Origin: Candidatus Sericytochromatia bacterium
GTDB taxonomy: Bacteria; Cyanobacteriota; Sericytochromatia; S15B-MN24; UBA4093
DNA: 64,000 nucleotides
Direction of reading: 5' to 3'
NCBI GenBank assembly: GCA_036676985.1
Contig: JAKFBU010000026.1
Coordinates: 257,265-321,264, forward strand
Positions 40,874 to 46,563 of this stretch are shown here, piece by piece. The notes under the pieces are model-generated. The model had not been told where the DNA came from, did not search any database, and was given only the letters and a program-made list of their open reading frames with translations. Each line of letters begins with the position of its first letter. Positions within the stretch are counted from its first letter, which is position 1. Both the position numbers and the translations under genes were made by a program.

Positions 40874-42940
40874 TCAAGCCGTCGGGTCCCCGACGACCCG
40901 GCGCAGGAAGCCGCGGGCCGCGGTAAGGCGGGCCTCCGCCTCTTGAGCATCGATGCGGCAGCGGGCCATCACGACGGCCACCTTCACCCGGCCACCGGCC
41001 GCCTCCAGGAGTCCCTCGGCGGTCGCGGCATCCACCCGTCCCAGCTCCCGGACCATTCCGAGGGCCCGCTGTTTCAGCTTGGCGTTGGAGACGGTCACAT
41101 CGACCATGCGGTTGCCGTAGACCTTGCCGAGCCGCACCATGGCCACCGTCGAGATCATGTTGAGGGCGAGCTTGGTGACCGTGCCCGCCTTGAGGCGGGT
41201 CGAGCCCGTGAGCACCTCGGGCCCCACCACCAGCTCGACGAGCGTGTCGACGTAGGGCGGGCGATCGCCCAGCGGGTTGCACGTCAAAAGCGCCGTCCGC
41301 GCCCCGTGGGAGTGGGCATGGGCGAGGGCCCCGTGCACGTACGGCGTCCGGCCGCTCGCGGCGATGCCGACCACCACGTCCCGTTCCGAGATCCCGCGCG
41401 CGTCGAGGTCCGTTGCCCCGGCGAGCCGGTCGTCCTCCGCCCCCTCGACGGCCTTCAAGAGGGCCCGGTCGCCACCCGCGATGAGGCCCTGGACCCATTC
41501 CGGGGGCGTGGAGAACGTGGGCGGGCACTCGGCCGCATCCAGGACGCCCAGCCGGCCGCTCGTGCCCGCTCCGACGTAGAACAGCCGCCCACCGTTGCCG
41601 AGGGCCTCGGCCACGTCCGAGACGACGGCCGCAAGCTCCGGCCGGGCCCGCCGGACGGCCGCGAGCACCCGCTCGTCCTCCTCGTTCATGACGTCGAGGA
41701 TGGCGAGGGTGTCCATGGCGTCCAGGTCCAGGGTCTGCGGGTTCGGGCGCTCGGTGACGCTGCCTACGGGCAGCGGGCGTTCCAGGCGCAGCCCCGCGAA
41801 GTTGCGTCCCGGGGCGATCTTGCCGAGCACCAGGGTTTCGCGGGCGCCCGTGGCCGCGGGGGCATGGTTCGTGAGCCCGCGGGCGGCCTGGTAGGCGAAG
41901 AGGGCGAAGGCGAGCGCCTCCTTTGCATCCGACGAGACGCCCCGGGCCTCGAGGTCCGTGACCTCGGCGGGCAGGAGGGCGTCTCGCAGCATGCCCATGA
42001 GGACGGGGTTCCGGGCTCCGCCTCCGCTCACGACCACCCGTGCGGGCCGCAGGCGGGGCGGCGTCCAGGCGCGCAGGGCCTGAGCCACCGCGTGCGCCGT
42101 GAAGGCCGTGGCGGTAGCCACCAGGTCCTCGGGGGGGATGCCCCGGGCGATCGCCGCGTCATAGCGCTCGTCGGCGTAGGCATGCCCGAACTCCTCGCGC
42201 CCGGTGGACTTGGGCGGCGCCTGGAGCAGGAAGGGATGGGCGAGCCACTCGTCCAGAAGCTCTGGCCGCACGTGGCCCCGAGCGGCGATCCGGCCGTCCT
42301 CGTCGTAGCGCCGGGCGCCCCGGGTCATGCGCTCGACGAAGCGATCGACGACCATGTTGCCGGGCCCCGTGTCGAAGGCCATGAGCTCCGAGGCGACCGG
42401 CGAGAGGAGCGAGACATTGGCGATGCCGCCCAGGTTCAGGAGGGCGACGGGGCGCTCGGGATCGGAGAACAGCGTCCGGTCGGCGTAGGGCACGAGCGGC
42501 GCCCCCTGGCCGCCCGCCGCCATGTCGGCCGGCCGGAAGTCGTGGATGGTCGTGATGCCCGTCCGCACGGCGATGACCGAGCCGTCGCCGAGCTGCATGG
42601 TGGCAGGGTGCGGCCCTTTGGGCAGGTGGAAGATCGTCTGGCCGTGCGAGCCGATGAGGTCCACGTCCTCGGGCGAACGTCCGCTCTCTTCGATCAGGCG
42701 CAGGGCTCCTGCGGCGAACCACTCGCCGAGCCAGGCGTCGAGCGCGCAGAGCTGGTCGACGCGGCTCGTCTCGGGGGCCATCTGCTGGAGGACCGCCGCC
42801 TTGAGGTCGTCGGGGAACGGGTAGGTGGCAAAGGCCTCGATCTCGAAGCGCACGTGCCCGCCCTCGTCCCAGAACCGGGCGAGGCAGGCGTCGAGGCCGT
42901 CGAGGGAGGTCCCGGACATCAGACCGAGCACGCGTCGCAC
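40874..42940 (-). CDS. anmK-murQ: fused anhydro-MurNAc kinase / MurNAc-6-P etherase
   Basis: GLMSGTSLDG, SHGQT, GGQGAPLVP, NLGGIAN, then TERPNP, GAGTSGRLG, GPEVLTGSTRLKAGT in one ORF. Confidence 0.92.
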   Translation of the reverse strand: MRRVLGLMSGTSLDGLDACLARFWDEGGHVRFEIEAFATYPFPDDLKAAVLQQMAPETSRVDQLCALDAWLGEWFAAGALRLIEESGRSPEDVDLIGSHGQTIFHLPKGPHPATMQLGDGSVIAVRTGITTIHDFRPADMAAGGQGAPLVPYADRTLFSDPERPVALLNLGGIANVSLLSPVASELMAFDTGPGNMVVDRFVERMTRGARRYDEDGRIAARGHVRPELLDEWLAHPFLLQAPPKSTGREEFGHAYADERYDAAIARGIPPEDLVATATAFTAHAVAQALRAWTPPRLRPARVVVSGGGARNPVLMGMLRDALLPAEVTDLEARGVSSDAKEALAFALFAYQAARGLTNHAPAATGARETLVLGKIAPGRNFAGLRLERPLPVGSVTERPNPQTLDLDAMDTLAILDVMNEEDERVLAAVRRARPELAAVVSDVAEALGNGGRLFYVGAGTSGRLGVLDAAECPPTFSTPPEWVQGLIAGGDRALLKAVEGAEDDRLAGATDLDARGISERDVVVGIAASGRTPYVHGALAHAHSHGARTALLTCNPLGDRPPYVDTLVELVVGPEVLTGSTRLKAGTVTKLALNMISTVAMVRLGKVYGNRMVDVTVSNAKLKQRALGMVRELGRVDAATAEGLLEAAGGRVKVAVVMARCRIDAQEAEARLTAARGFLRRVVGDPTA

Positions 42941-43031
42941 GCGGATCTCCTGGGGATGATCCCCGCGCCGCGGGAGGCGGGGGGTGGTGGGGAGGCAAAA
43001 ATTTCGTCCCGAACAGTCTAGCAGGATCGAA

Positions 43032-43060
43032 GGTTAAGGATGCTATACTAAACCTTAACC
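43032..43060 (+). promoter_or_regulatory. extended -10 promoter inside an 8-bp inverted repeat, upstream of tnpB
   Basis: GGTTAAGG-a-TGcTATACT-aaa-CCTTAACC. Confidence 0.6.
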
Positions 43061-43174
43061 AGAGCATCTGACGAAACCAGGCATGTAAAATCTGTGGCCG
43101 CCAGCCGGCGGCTTGAAGGAACAGTTCCGTCAGACGCTCTGCCCCTCCTCGTCGAGGGGTCATGGGAGAGACAC

Positions 43175-44986
43175 GTGGCACGGACGATCACCGTCGAACT
43201 GCACGCTCCGACGCTTGCCAAGCGGCAGGCCTTCCGGGACATGCAGGTCGAGTTCAACCGGATCGCCAACGAGCTCGCGACGAGCGTCGTCCGCAACTCG
43301 CTCGACGCCGTCTCTGCCGTCTCTCCGAGCAAGGAGCTCACGCGCTCCACCTTCGACGCCATGAGCGCGCTCTTCCCGTCGGGGCTCAACCACCCGGTCC
43401 TGCGCATGATCCAGGGCCAGATCAAGGCCGCGCGCTCGCGCGCCGATCGCTCGCCCCTGCCGCGCTTCAAGCCTTACGCGCCGGTGGTCTTCGGCGAGCA
43501 CGACTGGAAGCTCACCTGCATCGAGGGCCGCTGGAAGCTCACCATCCCCGTCATGGGCCGCTCGATCTCGGTGCCCGTGCTCGTCCCGACCGCCCAGGTC
43601 GAGGCCCTCCATCGCCTCATCTCCGCGGGCATCCCCCTGGAGGGGCGCCTGTACCAGCGCGGCGGCCGCTGGTTCTTCGCGGCGAGCTTCCTCAACGAGG
43701 TGCCCGTCCCCAAGCTCCATCAAGAGGCCATCGGCGTGGACCTCGGCCGCAAGCTGCGCGCGGTCGCCGTCGAGCCCCGGTCCAACCGGCGCCTGGTGCT
43801 CTCGGGCAAGGCCCACGAGCACCGACTGCGGCGCTACGACGACCTGGTCGCCAAGCTCGAGCGGGCGGGCGCCAGGCGCGCCATGCGGCGGGTCGCCCTC
43901 AAGCGCGATCGCTACGCCGAGCACGCCGACCGCACGGTCGCCAACGCCATCGTGGCCTTCGCCCGAGCGGAAAGGCACCCGCTCCTCAAGTTCGAACAGC
44001 TCTCCTCCCAAACGGCCCCGGGTTCCGCCCGCGAGGTCGAGTCCTACCGCCGCATCCAGCGGCTGGTGTCCCGTAAAGCCGAGCGATACGGGATCCCGGT
44101 CATGGCGGTCAACGGGTTCGAGTCCTCGCAGCGGTGCTACGCCTGCGGGTCCGTTCAGCCGGGCAACCGGCGCGATCGCGCATACCGGTGCGCGTGCGGC
44201 TACCATGCCCACGCGGACCTCAACGCGGCGCGCAACATTGCCCAAACGGCCATCTGGTCGGAAACGATCCAGCTGGCCTCCGGCGAGTACAACCTCGCCG
44301 GAGAGGCCGTCGGCACGGCTGCATCTCAGGTGGCCGGTCTGCTCAAGGGTCAGACCGAGCGCATGAGAAGCGCGATCGTCTCGGTTTCCGAGGCCGTCAC
44401 GCATGCCTCGCTTCCCACTCCTCCAACCCTTACATCCACACTTACTGCATACCGATTGGAGGGTACAGAAATGGCTAGCTTGGTTAAGGATCTCACGGAG
44501 ACCAGCACGAAGTTCATCACCGGTTCGCTCGACAACCTCAAGACCTACGTCGATCGCACCTCGGAAGAGGTGTCGCGCGTGGACGTCGTTGGCGTGACCC
44601 GCCGCGTCGTCGACACGACGATCGACAACACGAAGAAGGTCGTGAAGCTCACGGCTGAGCCCAACGGGCTCGACTTCTTCGGCAAGGCCAAGGCGGTTGC
44701 GGACGGCACCCTCGATGCCGCCAAGGAAGTCGTCACGACGGTTTCCGAGGAGGGCAAGAAGGCCGATGTCTTCGGCGTGGGCACCCGTCTGGCGATGGAG
44801 GGCATCGCGTCCCTTCGCAACCAGGTGGACCTGACCCTGGAGACCACCAAGAGCGTGACCAACCGCCTCATGCCCATTGCGACGAGCAAGAAGCCCGTGG
44901 CGACCCGCGCTCCCCAGGTCACTCGCGTCGAGATCGAGCAGGAGAAGCCGGCGGCGTCCACGTCGTCCAGCAAGTCCTCCAAGTAG
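43175..44986 (+). CDS. tnpB: TnpB/Cas12f-like RuvC nuclease, open in frame into a phasin-like domain
   Basis: GTG 43175 behind GGGAGAG; IGVDLG, LKFEQL, SQRCYACG..CACG, HADLNAARNI; no stop until 44986. Confidence 0.85.
   Translation: MARTITVELHAPTLAKRQAFRDMQVEFNRIANELATSVVRNSLDAVSAVSPSKELTRSTFDAMSALFPSGLNHPVLRMIQGQIKAARSRADRSPLPRFKPYAPVVFGEHDWKLTCIEGRWKLTIPVMGRSISVPVLVPTAQVEALHRLISAGIPLEGRLYQRGGRWFFAASFLNEVPVPKLHQEAIGVDLGRKLRAVAVEPRSNRRLVLSGKAHEHRLRRYDDLVAKLERAGARRAMRRVALKRDRYAEHADRTVANAIVAFARAERHPLLKFEQLSSQTAPGSAREVESYRRIQRLVSRKAERYGIPVMAVNGFESSQRCYACGSVQPGNRRDRAYRCACGYHAHADLNAARNIAQTAIWSETIQLASGEYNLAGEAVGTAASQVAGLLKGQTERMRSAIVSVSEAVTHASLPTPPTLTSTLTAYRLEGTEMASLVKDLTETSTKFITGSLDNLKTYVDRTSEEVSRVDVVGVTRRVVDTTIDNTKKVVKLTAEPNGLDFFGKAKAVADGTLDAAKEVVTTVSEEGKKADVFGVGTRLAMEGIASLRNQVDLTLETTKSVTNRLMPIATSKKPVATRAPQVTRVEIEQEKPAASTSSSKSSK
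44240..44420 (+). ncRNA. candidate omegaRNA scaffold plus guide
   Basis: Hairpins GGCCTCCGGCGAG/CTCGCCGGAGAGGCC, CGGTCTG/CAGACCG and CTCGG/CCGAG ending at GTCAC (44400), directly after RuvC-III. Confidence 0.45.
44471..44986 (+). CDS. phasin/apolipoprotein-like amphipathic repeat protein (internal start)
   Basis: GGAGGG RBS then ATG 44471; about 30-aa helical repeats; VTRVEIE plus S/K tail. Confidence 0.7.
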   Translation: MASLVKDLTETSTKFITGSLDNLKTYVDRTSEEVSRVDVVGVTRRVVDTTIDNTKKVVKLTAEPNGLDFFGKAKAVADGTLDAAKEVVTTVSEEGKKADVFGVGTRLAMEGIASLRNQVDLTLETTKSVTNRLMPIATSKKPVATRAPQVTRVEIEQEKPAASTSSSKSSK

Positions 44987-45001
44987 TCCTTTCCGGGACT
45001 T

Positions 45002-45030
45002 GGGGCGGCCCTTCGGGGCCGCCCCTTTTT
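45002..45030 (+). terminator. intrinsic terminator
   Basis: GGGGCGGCCC-TTCG-GGGCCGCCCC-TTTTT. Confidence 0.9.
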
Positions 45031-45080
45031 GTTGTCCTGGGTGCTGATGGTCCCGTTAAGGCGCCATACGTGTCAAATGA

Positions 45081-45255
45081 GACCTTGGGCGTGTTCAGCT
45101 TGCAGCGCTTCGGCCCCGCCATGCAGTGAGATGCAGCGTAGGCTTTTAACCTCATTACTGGTTAGGTATTGAAACAGCCTCGTTGGCGGTGGTAGAGGGC
45201 TTTCGGCTGGATCAGGAAGGCGTTACGGTGCAGCCGATCGCCAAGCCCAGGGTTA
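45081..45255 (+). ncRNA. ssrS: probable 6S RNA
   Basis: About 175-nt rod: ACCTTGGGC/GCCCAGGGT closing stem, 5' GTGTTC, inner CCGCCA/TGGCGG and AGGCT/AGCCT stems with asymmetric bubbles. Confidence 0.6.
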
Positions 45256-45287
45256 ACAGTCTTCCTATTCGGGGCTCCGTTTAGGTA

Positions 45288-45560
45288 TCAGCTTTTCTGC
45301 TTCTCGAAGACGTTTTGCAGCAGGATCGTGGCGATCACTCCAATAGCTAGCCCGCTAGTTGCCAGTGCGATCGGCTTCCCAACGAGGTTGGTGAGCGAGT
45401 TCGCGAGGGTCGCGGCAAATGCCGCAGCCAGAATGGCCATGGACCGCCTACGTGAGAGCAGTGGCCGGCTTTGGAATTGAACGGCCACAAAGAGGAAAAC
45501 TCCCATGAGGAGGAGAAATGGCCATAACAGGTAGTTGATTTGCATTGGCGATCCATTCAA
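45288..45560 (-). CDS. small three-TM membrane protein
   Basis: Hydrophobic ORF in a lower-GC patch. Confidence 0.55.
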   Translation of the reverse strand: MNGSPMQINYLLWPFLLLMGVFLFVAVQFQSRPLLSRRRSMAILAAAFAATLANSLTNLVGKPIALATSGLAIGVIATILLQNVFEKQKS

Positions 45561-45787
45561 GGGCTCTTTGGTTCGGGTGGATCCCCGCCAGAGAATCGTC
45601 CCATAACGCTAGGCGTTAGCAGTTCACGTACGTGCCAAAGTTGAGGGTGATATTATTATACATCATGGATTCAATGAAATTGGTGTAGCTTGTCGTGCTG
45701 CAGCACCTTCAAGTAAGTGCTCCATGTAGGACTTTCAGGAACTTGGGTCGGGGCCACTGGCCCGCCCCCATTCATTCCCGGCCGGGC

Positions 45788-46210
45788 TCATTGGCCGGAT
45801 GGCTCGAGCACTGGACGCTGGGCGATGGTCGCCCCGAACTCCTTGCCCTCCACATAGCCCACAAACGCGACGGCCACCATCTGGCCCGGTACCACGTCGA
45901 CGTAGCGGTTCGGATCCCTACGGTCGACCATCCGAGGCTGCAAGACGAAGCTGAAGGTCCCCGGATCCGTCGTCGCCTCTCCCAAGTCGAGCATGGCCTC
46001 CGGCCGTGCATCCACGTCGCCGAACAGGATCCGGTGCTGCCGGTTGCTTCCGAGGTAGCGATAGGAGACGTGGACGGTGTCGCCCAGGTGCAAAGAGGTG
46101 GGCTCGATGTTGACCTCGAAGGGCCGCGCCGTCGGATCGCTCGACGCCGCCCCAAAGTGGCACGCGCTGACGAGCGCCGTGACGCCGATGAGGATGCCCC
46201 AGGGCCTCAC
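45788..46210 (-). CDS. hypothetical lipoprotein
   Basis: Lipobox VSAC; GTGA overlap with the upstream ORF. Confidence 0.6.
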   Translation of the reverse strand: MRPWGILIGVTALVSACHFGAASSDPTARPFEVNIEPTSLHLGDTVHVSYRYLGSNRQHRILFGDVDARPEAMLDLGEATTDPGTFSFVLQPRMVDRRDPNRYVDVVPGQMVAVAFVGYVEGKEFGATIAQRPVLEPSGQ

Positions 46211-46509
46211 GCGTGGTCACCTTGCGTCCAGTTGAGCAGCACGATCCATCCGGCCAAGAGGCTGACGACCAGACTGGTCCCAACGGGCGAAAAGGCCAGC
46301 CGGGCCAAGCTCGCCTCGATGAGTTGGAACGGGAACAGCAAGCCGACGCCAAGTTGAAGCACGAGAAACGCCACGAGCCCGTACTTGGCGGCCAACGGGA
46401 CGCGTGGCTGGAAGTCGCCATTCATGAGGCCCTTCCATCCTCTCAGGTGAACGGTGCGTGCCAGGGCCACCAAAGCAACCACGAGGGGCAGTGCCAGGAT
46501 CGCTTCCAT
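46207..46509 (-). CDS. small three-TM membrane protein
   Basis: AGGAG RBS before ATG 46509; three hydrophobic segments. Confidence 0.6.
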   Translation of the reverse strand: MEAILALPLVVALVALARTVHLRGWKGLMNGDFQPRVPLAAKYGLVAFLVLQLGVGLLFPFQLIEASLARLAFSPVGTSLVVSLLAGWIVLLNWTQGDHA

Positions 46510-46563
46510 CTCCTGACTCCTCGCGCTCGCTCTAACCCCCACTACTAGATCCGGCCCAGCAGA

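Follow-up and report, generated by a model that had tools for sequence, protein, structure and literature searches.

To our knowledge, the host uses of TnpB are all DNA-directed and comprise Cas12 immunity, TldR repression and Cas12f-like activators. The closest described systems start with the TnpB proteins of IS200/IS605 elements (e.g. ISDra2 and AmaTnpB), which are accompanied by an omegaRNA (also called reRNA). According to PMC10278001, TnpB processes the mRNA that encodes it by a RuvC-dependent cut at the 5′ boundary of the omegaRNA, while the 3′ side is left untrimmed. The omegaRNA scaffolds described there are hairpin-rich and range from 79 to 466 nt. The TldR proteins are TnpB-like nuclease-dead repressors that are associated with fliC and oppF, according to the accessible parts of Wiegand et al. 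(PMC10705468) and of the Xiao et al. 2026 preprint. Cas12f and the other miniature type V effectors complete the comparison.

The locus described here lies in a window of 64,000 nucleotides (the whole stretch of DNA that was analysed) from a member of the Sericytochromatia. Positions 43175-44986 of the plus strand form a single frame of 603 codons, in which a protein of the TnpB/Cas12f fold is followed by a linker of about 80 codons and a helical protein of 171 aa. This arrangement is real and is also held in relatives. The following features can be distinguished:

40874-42940, minus strand: AnmK-MurQ-like (SIS) fusion gene, the divergent neighbour that serves as synteny anchor
43032-43060, plus strand: promoter-like region of the tnpB-like gene, proposed from the sequence
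43175-44986, plus strand: whole open frame of the putative long product (TnpB, linker and C-domain), defined by the ORF and the start found in orthologs
43175-44257, plus strand: TnpB/Cas12f-like core with WED, REC, RuvC I-III and TNB zinc finger, assigned from profiles, Foldseek and residues
44251-44431, plus strand: conserved structured RNA (omegaRNA-like scaffold) within the in-frame linker, assigned from covariation
44432-44470, plus strand: variable, A/T-richer stretch with the RBS GGAGGG (44458-44463), in frame and stop-free
44471-44986, plus strand: ORF of 171 aa, the putative short product, identical to the C-domain of the long product, with four predicted long helices
45002-45035, plus strand: intrinsic terminator common to both products (hairpin at 45002-45025, then a T-run)

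The frame is free of stops from a GTG at 43094 to the stop codon at 44984-44986 (630 codons). The GTG at 43175, which the original prediction had taken as the start, is the one common to the orthologs and yields 603 aa. Public gene callers report one protein of 587-619 aa for the whole frame. As had been claimed, no stop follows RuvC-III: the frame runs for 85 codons from the RuvC-III Asp to the ATG at 44471, where the short ORF begins behind its own RBS and shares the terminator with the long frame. Upstream, a -10-like TATACT (43044-43049) is situated within the inverted repeat GGTTAAGG/CCTTAACC, and related -10 boxes (GCTATAAT, GTTATAAT) occur at the equivalent position in the orthologs of family f1. 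A consensus promoter scan over 42800-45300 gave no match. The codon use had been described as host-like, which agrees with GC3 values of 0.925 for tnpB and 0.895 for the short gene, compared to 0.919 for anmK. The distal linker, where atypical codons had been noted, indeed falls to a GC3 of 0.514 and displays no codon bias.

In the TnpB-like core, the RuvC triad and the zinc finger reported earlier are fully present, namely D189 in IGVDLG, E274 in KFEQL, D348 in HADLNAA and the four zinc-finger Cys. The Cas12f1-like TNB profile of Pfam (PF07282) matches with 67.9 bits (cut-off 26.3), and the NCBIfam model guided_TnpB (NF040570) is a near miss with 97 bits, below its cut-off of 100 and covering only residues 181-384. 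A Foldseek search with the AlphaFold model returned Cas12f and TnpB structures at E-values of 1e-20 to 1e-13. The top structural match is AsCas12f (E 1e-20), and Cas12f also provides the top PADLOC profile matches. With the TnpB of IS200/IS605 the core shares the fold, the RuvC D-E-D and the layout of the zinc finger. Sixteen of the 18 orthologs retain the D-E-D and the zinc finger, and none of the seven catalytic or zinc-binding residues varies among them at identities down to 35%. The TnpB of genome G014 is catalytically dead (D189A, E274A, zinc finger lost) and that of G010 is a truncated remnant. In four of the 16 intact orthologs, belonging to four lineages, REC is mostly deleted, and these REC-less proteins are still under purifying selection (dN/dS 0.17). 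As judged from close pairs (dN/dS 0.15-0.25 over ~350 codons), TnpB as such is under purifying selection.

The locus was then compared between genomes, all of which are metagenome-assembled. Both parts (TnpB and the C-domain) are single-copy in their own genome. In agreement with the earlier claim that tnpA and a CRISPR array are missing, no Y1 TnpA was found in this genome (100% complete) and no CRISPR-like array within 36-52 kb, where Tandem Repeats Finder gave only two short coding repeats. Adaptation genes were not found near the TnpB-like gene either. This differs from Cas12f systems. The guide-like RNA is here a single scaffold inside the ORF. A locus search with a single protein as query returned one close relative only. 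Across the order, 17 of 27 genomes have the same arrangement next to anmK-murQ, with anmK as divergent neighbour in 17/17 fusion loci. The stop-free fused frame occurs in all genomes of f1 (10/10) and in most of f4 (7/8). The single genome of f2 (1/1) contains a truncated, in-frame remnant, which is the 18th locus, and the sister family f3 possesses the C-domain alone (8/8 genomes). The trees of TnpB and of the C-domain agree on the f1/f4 split and on the genus clades, the TnpB tree being congruent with that of the host gene, and TnpB evolves ~3x faster than the C-domain. Single copy, synteny at anmK, a host-congruent tree and purifying selection together support the proposed domestication of TnpB. 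In contrast to the IS200/IS605 elements, this TnpB is immobile and single-copy, occupies a fixed syntenic locus without tnpA and is inherited vertically. The outcomes that the original prediction had named against itself did not occur: the orthologs showed neither a stop in the linker nor a site devoid of tnpB, and many mobile copies were not encountered.

The in-frame read-through proved to be conserved across orthologs. The linker is stop-free in 18/18 loci, although its length varies between 75 and 87 codons, and all six lengths (75, 78, 79, 83, 85 and 87 codons) preserve the frame. In the 16 linkers whose frames were compared, frame 0 is without a stop in every case (16/16), while at least one stop occurs in 24 of the 32 alternative sense frames. 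The other two loci are likewise open. Two checks that had been suggested were carried out. Synteny and open frame both held in the related genomes (anmK in 17/17, stop-free in 18/18), and the dN/dS of the linker was found to be near 1 (0.2-2.4), with a depressed dS of 0.04-0.12 vs 0.2-0.8 in the flanks. The linker peptide is predicted to be disordered by AlphaFold (pLDDT ~30). At the level of sequence, the linker is thus shown to be a folded RNA of ~180 nt that is constrained at the nucleotide level, and not a conserved peptide. In every lineage the reading frame nevertheless crosses this RNA without a stop and enters the downstream gene in register, as read from the aligned sequences. In the nearest ordinary relatives (P0015, P0017 and P0018) a stop follows 8-20 codons past RuvC-III. 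Here, in contrast, the frame continues for ~245 codons across the whole scaffold and the host gene.

The presence of an RNA scaffold in the linker, as originally claimed, is borne out by strong covariation. Its helices are the following:

44251-44259 with 44266-44275, plus strand: helix 1
44280-44287 with 44294-44301, plus strand: hairpin 2
44305-44309 with 44316-44320, plus strand: invariant hairpin 3
44325-44328 with 44364-44367, plus strand: helix 4
44339-44341 with 44351-44353, plus strand: helix 5
44370-44372 with 44400-44402, plus strand: helix 7
44345-44350 with 44426-44431, plus strand: long-range AAGGG(N)/(N)CCCTT pairing

These seven helices comprise 36 pairs, 26 of which are compensatory, compared to 10-16 when the partners are slid. 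Over the 36 pairs, 92.7% of the cells are paired, vs 34-49% with slid partners. On four of five measures, none of 500 shuffles reached the observed value. The linker also contains nucleotide-invariant islands. One island of 19 nt is conserved at all codon positions in 18/18 loci, with at most one or two differences. When at most one mismatch is allowed, this motif is found only at the orthologous locus, and matches with two mismatches occur at the level of the reversed control. The segment 3′ of the conserved scaffold, after CCCTTG, is variable. Searches against Rfam, both with the gathering cut-off and with E-values up to 10, returned no match in the linker and only terminator look-alikes at 44938-45039. 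The covariance model of the RNA yielded one strong match per genome, only at the 18 loci used to build the model. Two weak extra matches (24.1 and 18.8 bits) are situated in other coding regions, lack the invariant loop and were taken as false. Beside five mobile cyanobacterial TnpB relatives, the model gave no match. Since no homology to a known omegaRNA was detected, an omegaRNA origin is argued from position, size and architecture; the hairpin-rich RNA begins where such a scaffold would be expected from IS200/IS605, in the 3′ end of the ORF. RNA and open frame have both been retained in genomes whose TnpB is dead (G014) or a remnant (G010), so the RNA has some value without an active TnpB.

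RNA contigs were obtained from 4/4 metatranscriptome runs (four studies). They start at 44262, 44274, 44285 and 44311, at the 5′ edge of the scaffold. Contig starts are no proof of where an RNA begins; a promoter within the linker would look alike, and the runs may contain DNA. The contigs extend into the short gene (ends at 44553-44990), and scaffold and downstream gene are thereby found on one RNA in the assemblies. Strain variants within the linker add no stop and shift no frame. The tnpB body is hardly represented, which as missing cover is not a measure of expression. This pattern would fit a self-processing at the 5′ side that leaves the 3′ side untrimmed, as described for TnpB in PMC10278001. 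A long fusion together with a short protein, as the locus had been suggested to make, is plausible, given that frame, RBS and ATG are all conserved and that the RNA contigs begin in the linker.

The orthologous sequences retain a separate RBS and ATG for the downstream gene, and with a dN/dS of 0.07-0.2 the short protein is, by the same kind of comparison, under purifying selection. AlphaFold models the C-domain with low confidence (pLDDT 46), too weak a basis for a fold search, and members of its family were found nearly exclusively in this lineage, at 7 proteins among 5.8 billion. The earlier designation as phasin-like is unproven. It is based on the helical, amphipathic character and on a weak Atlas match, in which a Phasin_2 cluster stands at rank 18 with a score of 0.88. 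The likeness to phasins and other amphipathic helical coat proteins lies in the length of ~170 aa, the four long predicted helices, this Atlas match and the presence of PhaC_N-type genes in the same genome. However, neither any Pfam family nor the phasin profiles of NCBIfam gave a match to the C-domain at E up to 1 (Phasin and Phasin_2 included), and the family is nearly limited to the lineage.

With TldR, as known from the accessible text, the locus shares the host exaptation of a TnpB, the bond to one neighbour gene and the retained, here putative, guide-RNA scaffold. However, the catalytic residues are kept in 16/18 genomes (only G014 is dead and G010 truncated), no guide-complementary target was found in the own genome and the ORF is fused to the neighbour gene. 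In the accessible text of PMC10705468 no natural fusion appears, the word denoting an engineered dCas9 fusion. A literature search gave no description of such a locus, nothing that links TnpB with Sericytochromatia or, among the matches listed, with phasin, and nothing fitting on the exaptation or single-copy state of TnpB. The supplement lists of PMC10705468, PMC10278001 and Altae-Tran et al. may include the clade. The arrangement is a new variant of TnpB exaptation, of which no description was found in print.

We give about an even chance to a reading in which a domesticated TnpB and an omegaRNA-derived leader, with a long fusion and a short protein, act on RNA in cis. An IS605-type tnpB with its 3′ guide-RNA scaffold would have inserted just upstream of the gene of a lineage-specific helical protein. 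This insertion would have occurred in the ancestor of f1, f4 and probably f2, within one order of Sericytochromatia, after which the element would have become immobile and been inherited vertically as a single copy. From the tnpB promoter, a long mRNA would be formed that yields the TnpB-linker-C fusion (~66 kDa). TnpB may bind the scaffold in cis, and its RuvC site may, as shown for other TnpBs, sever the mRNA of TnpB itself at the 5′ boundary of the scaffold without trimming the 3′ side. This would leave a stable RNA with scaffold, leader and short ORF as the template for the 18-kDa protein. What was once the omegaRNA would then serve as 5′ leader of the host gene, and TnpB would be an RNA-binding and processing partner of this gene rather than a DNA-targeting nuclease. 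The long isoform has the C-domain of the short protein and may join its assemblies. A more tentative extension, which we hold to be rather doubtful, is that the OMEGA RNP has been exapted post-transcriptionally: TnpB would, by means of its RuvC site, cut the host mRNA out of the TnpB transcript and stay bound to it, and the fusion would tie this mRNA to the assemblies of the protein that it encodes. The open frame through the scaffold would serve to give some TnpB molecules the host protein as C-terminal domain. The RNP and its mRNA, tied to these assemblies, could allow a localised or self-limiting synthesis.

If true, this would be the first TnpB relative with an mRNA in cis as natural substrate, and the first with an ORF that extends across its guide RNA into a host gene. 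Action on RNA in cis would also widen the evolutionary range of RNA-guided nucleases and supply an RNA-binding protein and its RNA tag as a small, naturally occurring pair. In the most sober reading, one stretch of DNA has to satisfy three constraints at the same time: it folds as RNA, remains open as a reading frame and contains a start of translation. The long-kept TnpB at a fixed site in these non-photosynthetic cyanobacterial relatives, with its frame running into a host gene, suggests a new use of such nucleases. It is an old, vertically kept TnpB whose active site is mostly retained and whose guide-target-duplex domain has been lost in several lineages, and the putative guide-RNA scaffold now lies within a host mRNA and within the extended frame of TnpB itself. 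The 18 orthologs with their natural domain deletions provide material for structure-function work.

Other readings have to be weighed against this RNA-directed role. The locus could encode an RNA-guided DNA-binding or DNA-cutting system like TldR or Cas12f, in which the scaffold and the stretch after CCCTTG act as guide, the C-domain as granule or membrane tether, and the target is chromosomal or foreign. The intact D-E-D and zinc finger of 16/18 orthologs, the purifying selection on TnpB, its Cas12f/TnpB fold and the variable segment behind the scaffold are in line with such a system. However, when 16-mers (up to 2 mismatches) and 20-mers (up to 4) of 44396-44470 were searched in the own genome, no target rose above the control (87 matches vs 121 for the reversed controls). 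REC, the holder of the guide-target duplex, is mostly deleted in 4/16 intact orthologs, the scaffold is still joined to the downstream mRNA in the RNA assemblies and a CRISPR array is missing within 36-52 kb. We consider a guided action on DNA unlikely, and the tethered DNA binder that had been put forward is weakened by the lack of a guide-like target in the own genome and by the REC deletions.

TnpB could also be a passenger without function. What the host needs would then be the downstream gene alone, its promoter and leader now being located within the former element, and the frame would stay open only because a nonsense codon would cause polarity (Rho) or disturb the leader. In favour of a passenger, the genome contains Rho, RNA and open frame outlast the loss of D189, E274 and the zinc finger in G014 and the truncation in G010, REC deletions are tolerated, the distal linker is without codon bias and the rate of evolution of TnpB is some threefold that of the C-domain. 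However, a functionless ORF is not expected to show a dN/dS of 0.15-0.25 over ~350 codons with seven key residues invariant in 16/18 genomes, and polarity fails to explain why every indel preserves the frame of the downstream gene; a mere passenger seems improbable to us. Chance read-through in GC-rich DNA had been called plausible at the outset, and long spurious open frames are common in this genome of 67% GC; an assembly or sequencing artefact was considered as well. The frame is nevertheless open in 18/18 independent assemblies with six linker lengths and in the RNA contigs of four studies, and the alternative frames carry stops (24/32). These observations leave chance or artefact with next to no probability, and this explanation was ruled out.

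A minor observation concerns the SD sequence of the short gene. Its sequestration by the CCCUU/CCUCC elements is predicted for the majority of sequences, but in composition-matched shuffles the SD is paired at nearly the same frequency. In only seven of the 18 sequences was the observed value reached by no more than 5% of the shuffles.

On the + strand of the window, an open frame runs from 43094 to the stop at 44984-44986. The GTG at 43175, preceded by GGGAGA, is the start common to all orthologs and yields a product of 603 aa, whose C-terminal part (the C-domain) also has a start of its own.

Features of the locus (window coordinates)
from 43175, + strand: TnpB/Cas12f-type part, residues 1-361 of the 603-aa product (Pfam, NCBIfam, PADLOC, AlphaFold/Foldseek)
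from RuvC-III to ATG 44471, + strand: linker of 85 codons, frame uninterrupted
44458-44463, + strand: RBS GGAGGG, 5' of ATG 44471
44471-44986, + strand: 171-aa protein from ATG 44471, four long helices predicted
45002-45025: single intrinsic terminator, 3' of the frame

The locus very probably combines a domesticated TnpB and a conserved structured RNA, the latter lying in an open frame held by selection, with two translation starts. The original prediction, a TnpB read in frame through its RNA scaffold into a downstream protein, described the locus correctly in every detail checked. The host-like codon use it reported is seen in the GC3 of tnpB (0.925), which resembles that of the neighboring anmK gene (0.919), and the atypical codons of the distal linker in a GC3 of 0.514. 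Likewise, neither tnpA nor a Y1 transposase was found in the whole genome, and no CRISPR array was found within 36-52 kb.

The TnpB part matches the Pfam Cas12f1-like TNB family (67.9 bits, cut-off 26.3), NCBIfam guided_TnpB (97 bits, slightly below the cut-off of 100) and the PADLOC Cas12f profiles (down to 1.6e-24). An AlphaFold model, with 14 orthologs as input, is confident across residues 1-357, and its Foldseek matches are AsCas12f (1e-20), ISFba1 TnpB and ISDra2 TnpB. The RuvC residues D189, E274 and D348 and the four zinc-finger cysteines are all present, and 16 of the 18 orthologs retain them. In 4 of those 16, the REC domain, which holds the guide-target duplex, is mostly gone: genus g3 (three genomes, L013-L015) and G026 (L010). 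These in-frame deletions of about 65-70 residues remove the REC helices and leave the RuvC and zinc-finger residues intact; they are apparently two independent events. The REC-less orthologs are still under purifying selection (dN/dS 0.17). A metagenome protein, P0016 (396 aa), begins directly at RuvC-I.

By their sequences, the remaining two orthologs are natural cases in which the TnpB part has lost its function. G014 (L019) carries D189A, E274A, D348V and Cys to Ser/Arg changes, with loss of the zinc finger, in a full-length, open frame of 590 codons. G010 (L020) keeps about 140 TnpB residues, followed by the RNA and the C-domain. The RNA is still recognisable by covariance model in both (118.9 and 90.9 bits, respectively). 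A search of the window's own genome with every 16-mer and 20-mer of 44396-44470 found no guide-like match elsewhere; the 20-mer search at up to 4 mismatches gave 87 matches, against 121 for reversed controls.

The reading frame of the linker (frame 0) lacks stops at 16/16 counted loci and at both other loci, whereas 24 of the 32 other sense frames across these stretches contain at least one stop. The internal Met follows the RuvC-III Asp at a distance of 75, 78, 79, 83, 85 or 87 codons, six values across eight genera and always whole codons, and 18/18 loci keep the internal RBS and ATG. The distal linker shows no codon bias and cannot be aligned from one family to another. About 1.3 stops per lineage would be expected in it, an estimate from base composition for lineages that are not independent. 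Without selection, its remaining open across roughly eight or nine genera would be very unlikely. Chance read-through, initially considered plausible, is very improbable in view of 18/18 stop-free linkers.

In a codon alignment of the linker region from 18 loci, a 19-nt island (CAGGCCGTCGGCACGGCTG; the window's copy starts GAG) is conserved at all three codon positions, with one to three variable positions among genomes that are 35-50% identical in protein. It is followed by the conserved islands AAGGG, GAAGC, CATGCC and CCCTTG. At up to one mismatch, the 19-nt motif occurs once per genome and at this locus only. RNAalifold, with one long-range pairing added by hand, gives seven helices at 44251-44431. 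Of 648 cells, 92.7% are paired, against 34-49% after sliding the 3' partners; compensatory double changes occur at 26/36 pairs (10-16 after sliding), including 8/8 pairs of hairpin 2 (44280-44301). On four of five measures, the observed value exceeded all 500 shuffles. A folded RNA with strong covariation does lie in the linker, in line with the scaffold claimed there.

Nei-Gojobori estimates for close pairs, the linker check proposed originally, give a dN/dS of 0.2-2.4 (mostly 0.6-1) for the linker, with a dS of 0.04-0.12. The values are 0.15-0.25 for TnpB and 0.07-0.2 for the C-domain, with a dS of 0.2-0.8 in these flanks. The linker peptide (residues 361-429) is predicted by AlphaFold to be disordered (pLDDT about 30). 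These sequence comparisons indicate that the linker is conserved as RNA rather than as peptide. Like omegaRNA scaffolds, the RNA begins right after the RuvC-III codons, is about 180 nt long and is rich in hairpins; PMC10278001 gives 79-466 nt for such scaffolds and 5' stem-loops for the 'Derived' clade. Because no sequence homology to any described RNA was found, an omegaRNA origin is argued from place and form.

The locus was surveyed in an order of 27 species genomes. The same fused frame is present in 10/10 genomes of family f1 and 7/8 of f4 (the eighth is 86% complete), and persists down to 35% identity. The single f2 genome has a 342-codon open frame in which a truncated TnpB remnant is in frame with the C-domain. 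In f3 (8/8 genomes), the helical protein stands alone as a separate gene of about 180-270 codons. The f3 homologues L021-L023, compared with 44226-44431, have neither the 19-nt motif nor an RNA-model match, which argues that the folded leader arrived with TnpB and is not ancestral to the helical-protein gene. Contig ends cut 3/17 fusion loci. By coordinates, the 'internal' stop of G002 is the natural terminal stop and that of G020 lies 5' of the conserved start, so the linker is spared in both.

The comparison of related genomes suggested originally also revealed conserved synteny: at 17/17 fusion loci the upstream neighbor is the divergently transcribed AnmK-MurQ-like gene. In the window (40874-42940, - strand) it encodes a 688-aa fusion of AnmK (367 bits) and a MurQ/GKRP-like SIS domain, which would place two consecutive murein-recycling steps in one protein. 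The assembly (4.68 Mb, 100% complete) has one copy of each half of the locus. In maximum-likelihood trees, the TnpB part and the C-domain agree on the f1/f4 split and on all genus clades, with TnpB evolving roughly three times faster. Together, these results support a domesticated, non-mobile TnpB. Synteny stops at the terminator (downstream of 45040), and three small ORFs at 45288-46542 (- strand) have no counterpart in any orthologous locus flank, including that of same-genus G001.

Public pipelines annotate the nearest relatives, out of 1.84 billion representative proteins, as single proteins of 532-613 aa. NCBI names members of the fused clusters 'transposase' or 'zinc ribbon domain-containing protein'. 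They come from MAGs of Candidatus Sericytochromatia or Tanganyikabacteria, with some MAGs labeled Pantanalinema, Stenomitos or Chroococcales. No PsaA/PsaB was found in the own genome, in keeping with a member of the cyanobacterial phylum that does not photosynthesise. The closest TnpB of the ordinary kind, a 369-aa protein at 37% identity, stops about 20 residues past RuvC-III.

The designation 'phasin-like' for the short protein is still a guess. The C-domain has no Pfam or NCBIfam match, just 7 relatives among 5.8 billion proteins and structure models of low confidence; the Atlas points weakly to a Phasin_2 cluster. In the own genome (C44:49551-57018), two PhaC_N-type ORFs of 360-389 codons that lie 7 kb apart permit the phasin idea without supporting it. 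The protein contains an internal duplication (EEVSRVDVVGVTRRV... and EEGKKADVFGVGTRL...) and a strongly conserved C-terminal PQVTRVEIE.EKP motif, followed by a Ser/Lys-rich tail.

Four metatranscriptome runs, each from a different study, were compared with window 43000-45100. Each holds an RNA contig (95-98% identity to the window) that starts at the 5' edge of or inside the folded RNA (44262, 44274, 44285, 44311) and runs unbroken into the short gene (ends 44553-44990); a single contig of 621 nt spans 44274-44894. The tnpB body is represented by short, low-depth, only partly fitting pieces. This hints that the abundant RNA is scaffold plus short gene, bearing in mind that contig starts are not proof of 5' ends and libraries may hold DNA. 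Strain variants in the linker (e.g. 44443-44449) change amino acids and add no stop or frame shift.

A TnpB may have been immobilised ahead of a host gene, its guide-RNA scaffold becoming the 5' leader of that gene. According to PMC10278001, TnpB uses its RuvC site to cut its own mRNA at the omegaRNA 5' end, with no trimming on the 3' side. By analogy, RuvC-dependent self-cutting would here release scaffold plus short-gene RNA, exactly the RNA in the assemblies. Such cutting in cis would likewise account for an active site that persists where REC may be lost, and for the lack of an evident DNA target. The mechanism is tentative, somewhat short of an even chance; joined with the descriptive core into one statement, it stands evenly balanced.

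The upkeep of the open frame is beyond what cis RNA processing alone explains. Rho-dependent polarity, which would keep the frame open, is a partial alternative: Rho is present in the own genome (641 bits, C23:303416-304645), but polarity leaves the strict match in frame with the downstream gene unexplained. Most simply, the 66-kDa fusion would have a use of its own, for example by entering assemblies of the short protein via the common C-domain.

In the articles searched, a TnpB fused through its own RNA to a host gene is undescribed, although supplementary lists of 'non-mobile' TnpBs may include the clade; no description of TnpB in Sericytochromatia was found. TnpB exaptation is already known as a kind, and there is a fair chance that the mode of action here is new.

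Behind 44959, in the part encoding the tail of the short protein, one of the RNA contigs has 3 extra nt. Upstream of the frame, at 43032-43060, a perfect 8-bp inverted repeat (GGTTAAGG/CCTTAACC) flanks a -10-like TATACT, and genera g1 and g2 read GGTTAAGAC.GCTATAAT at the homologous place. This repeat may act as an operator or be what is left of the transposon's left-end hairpin.
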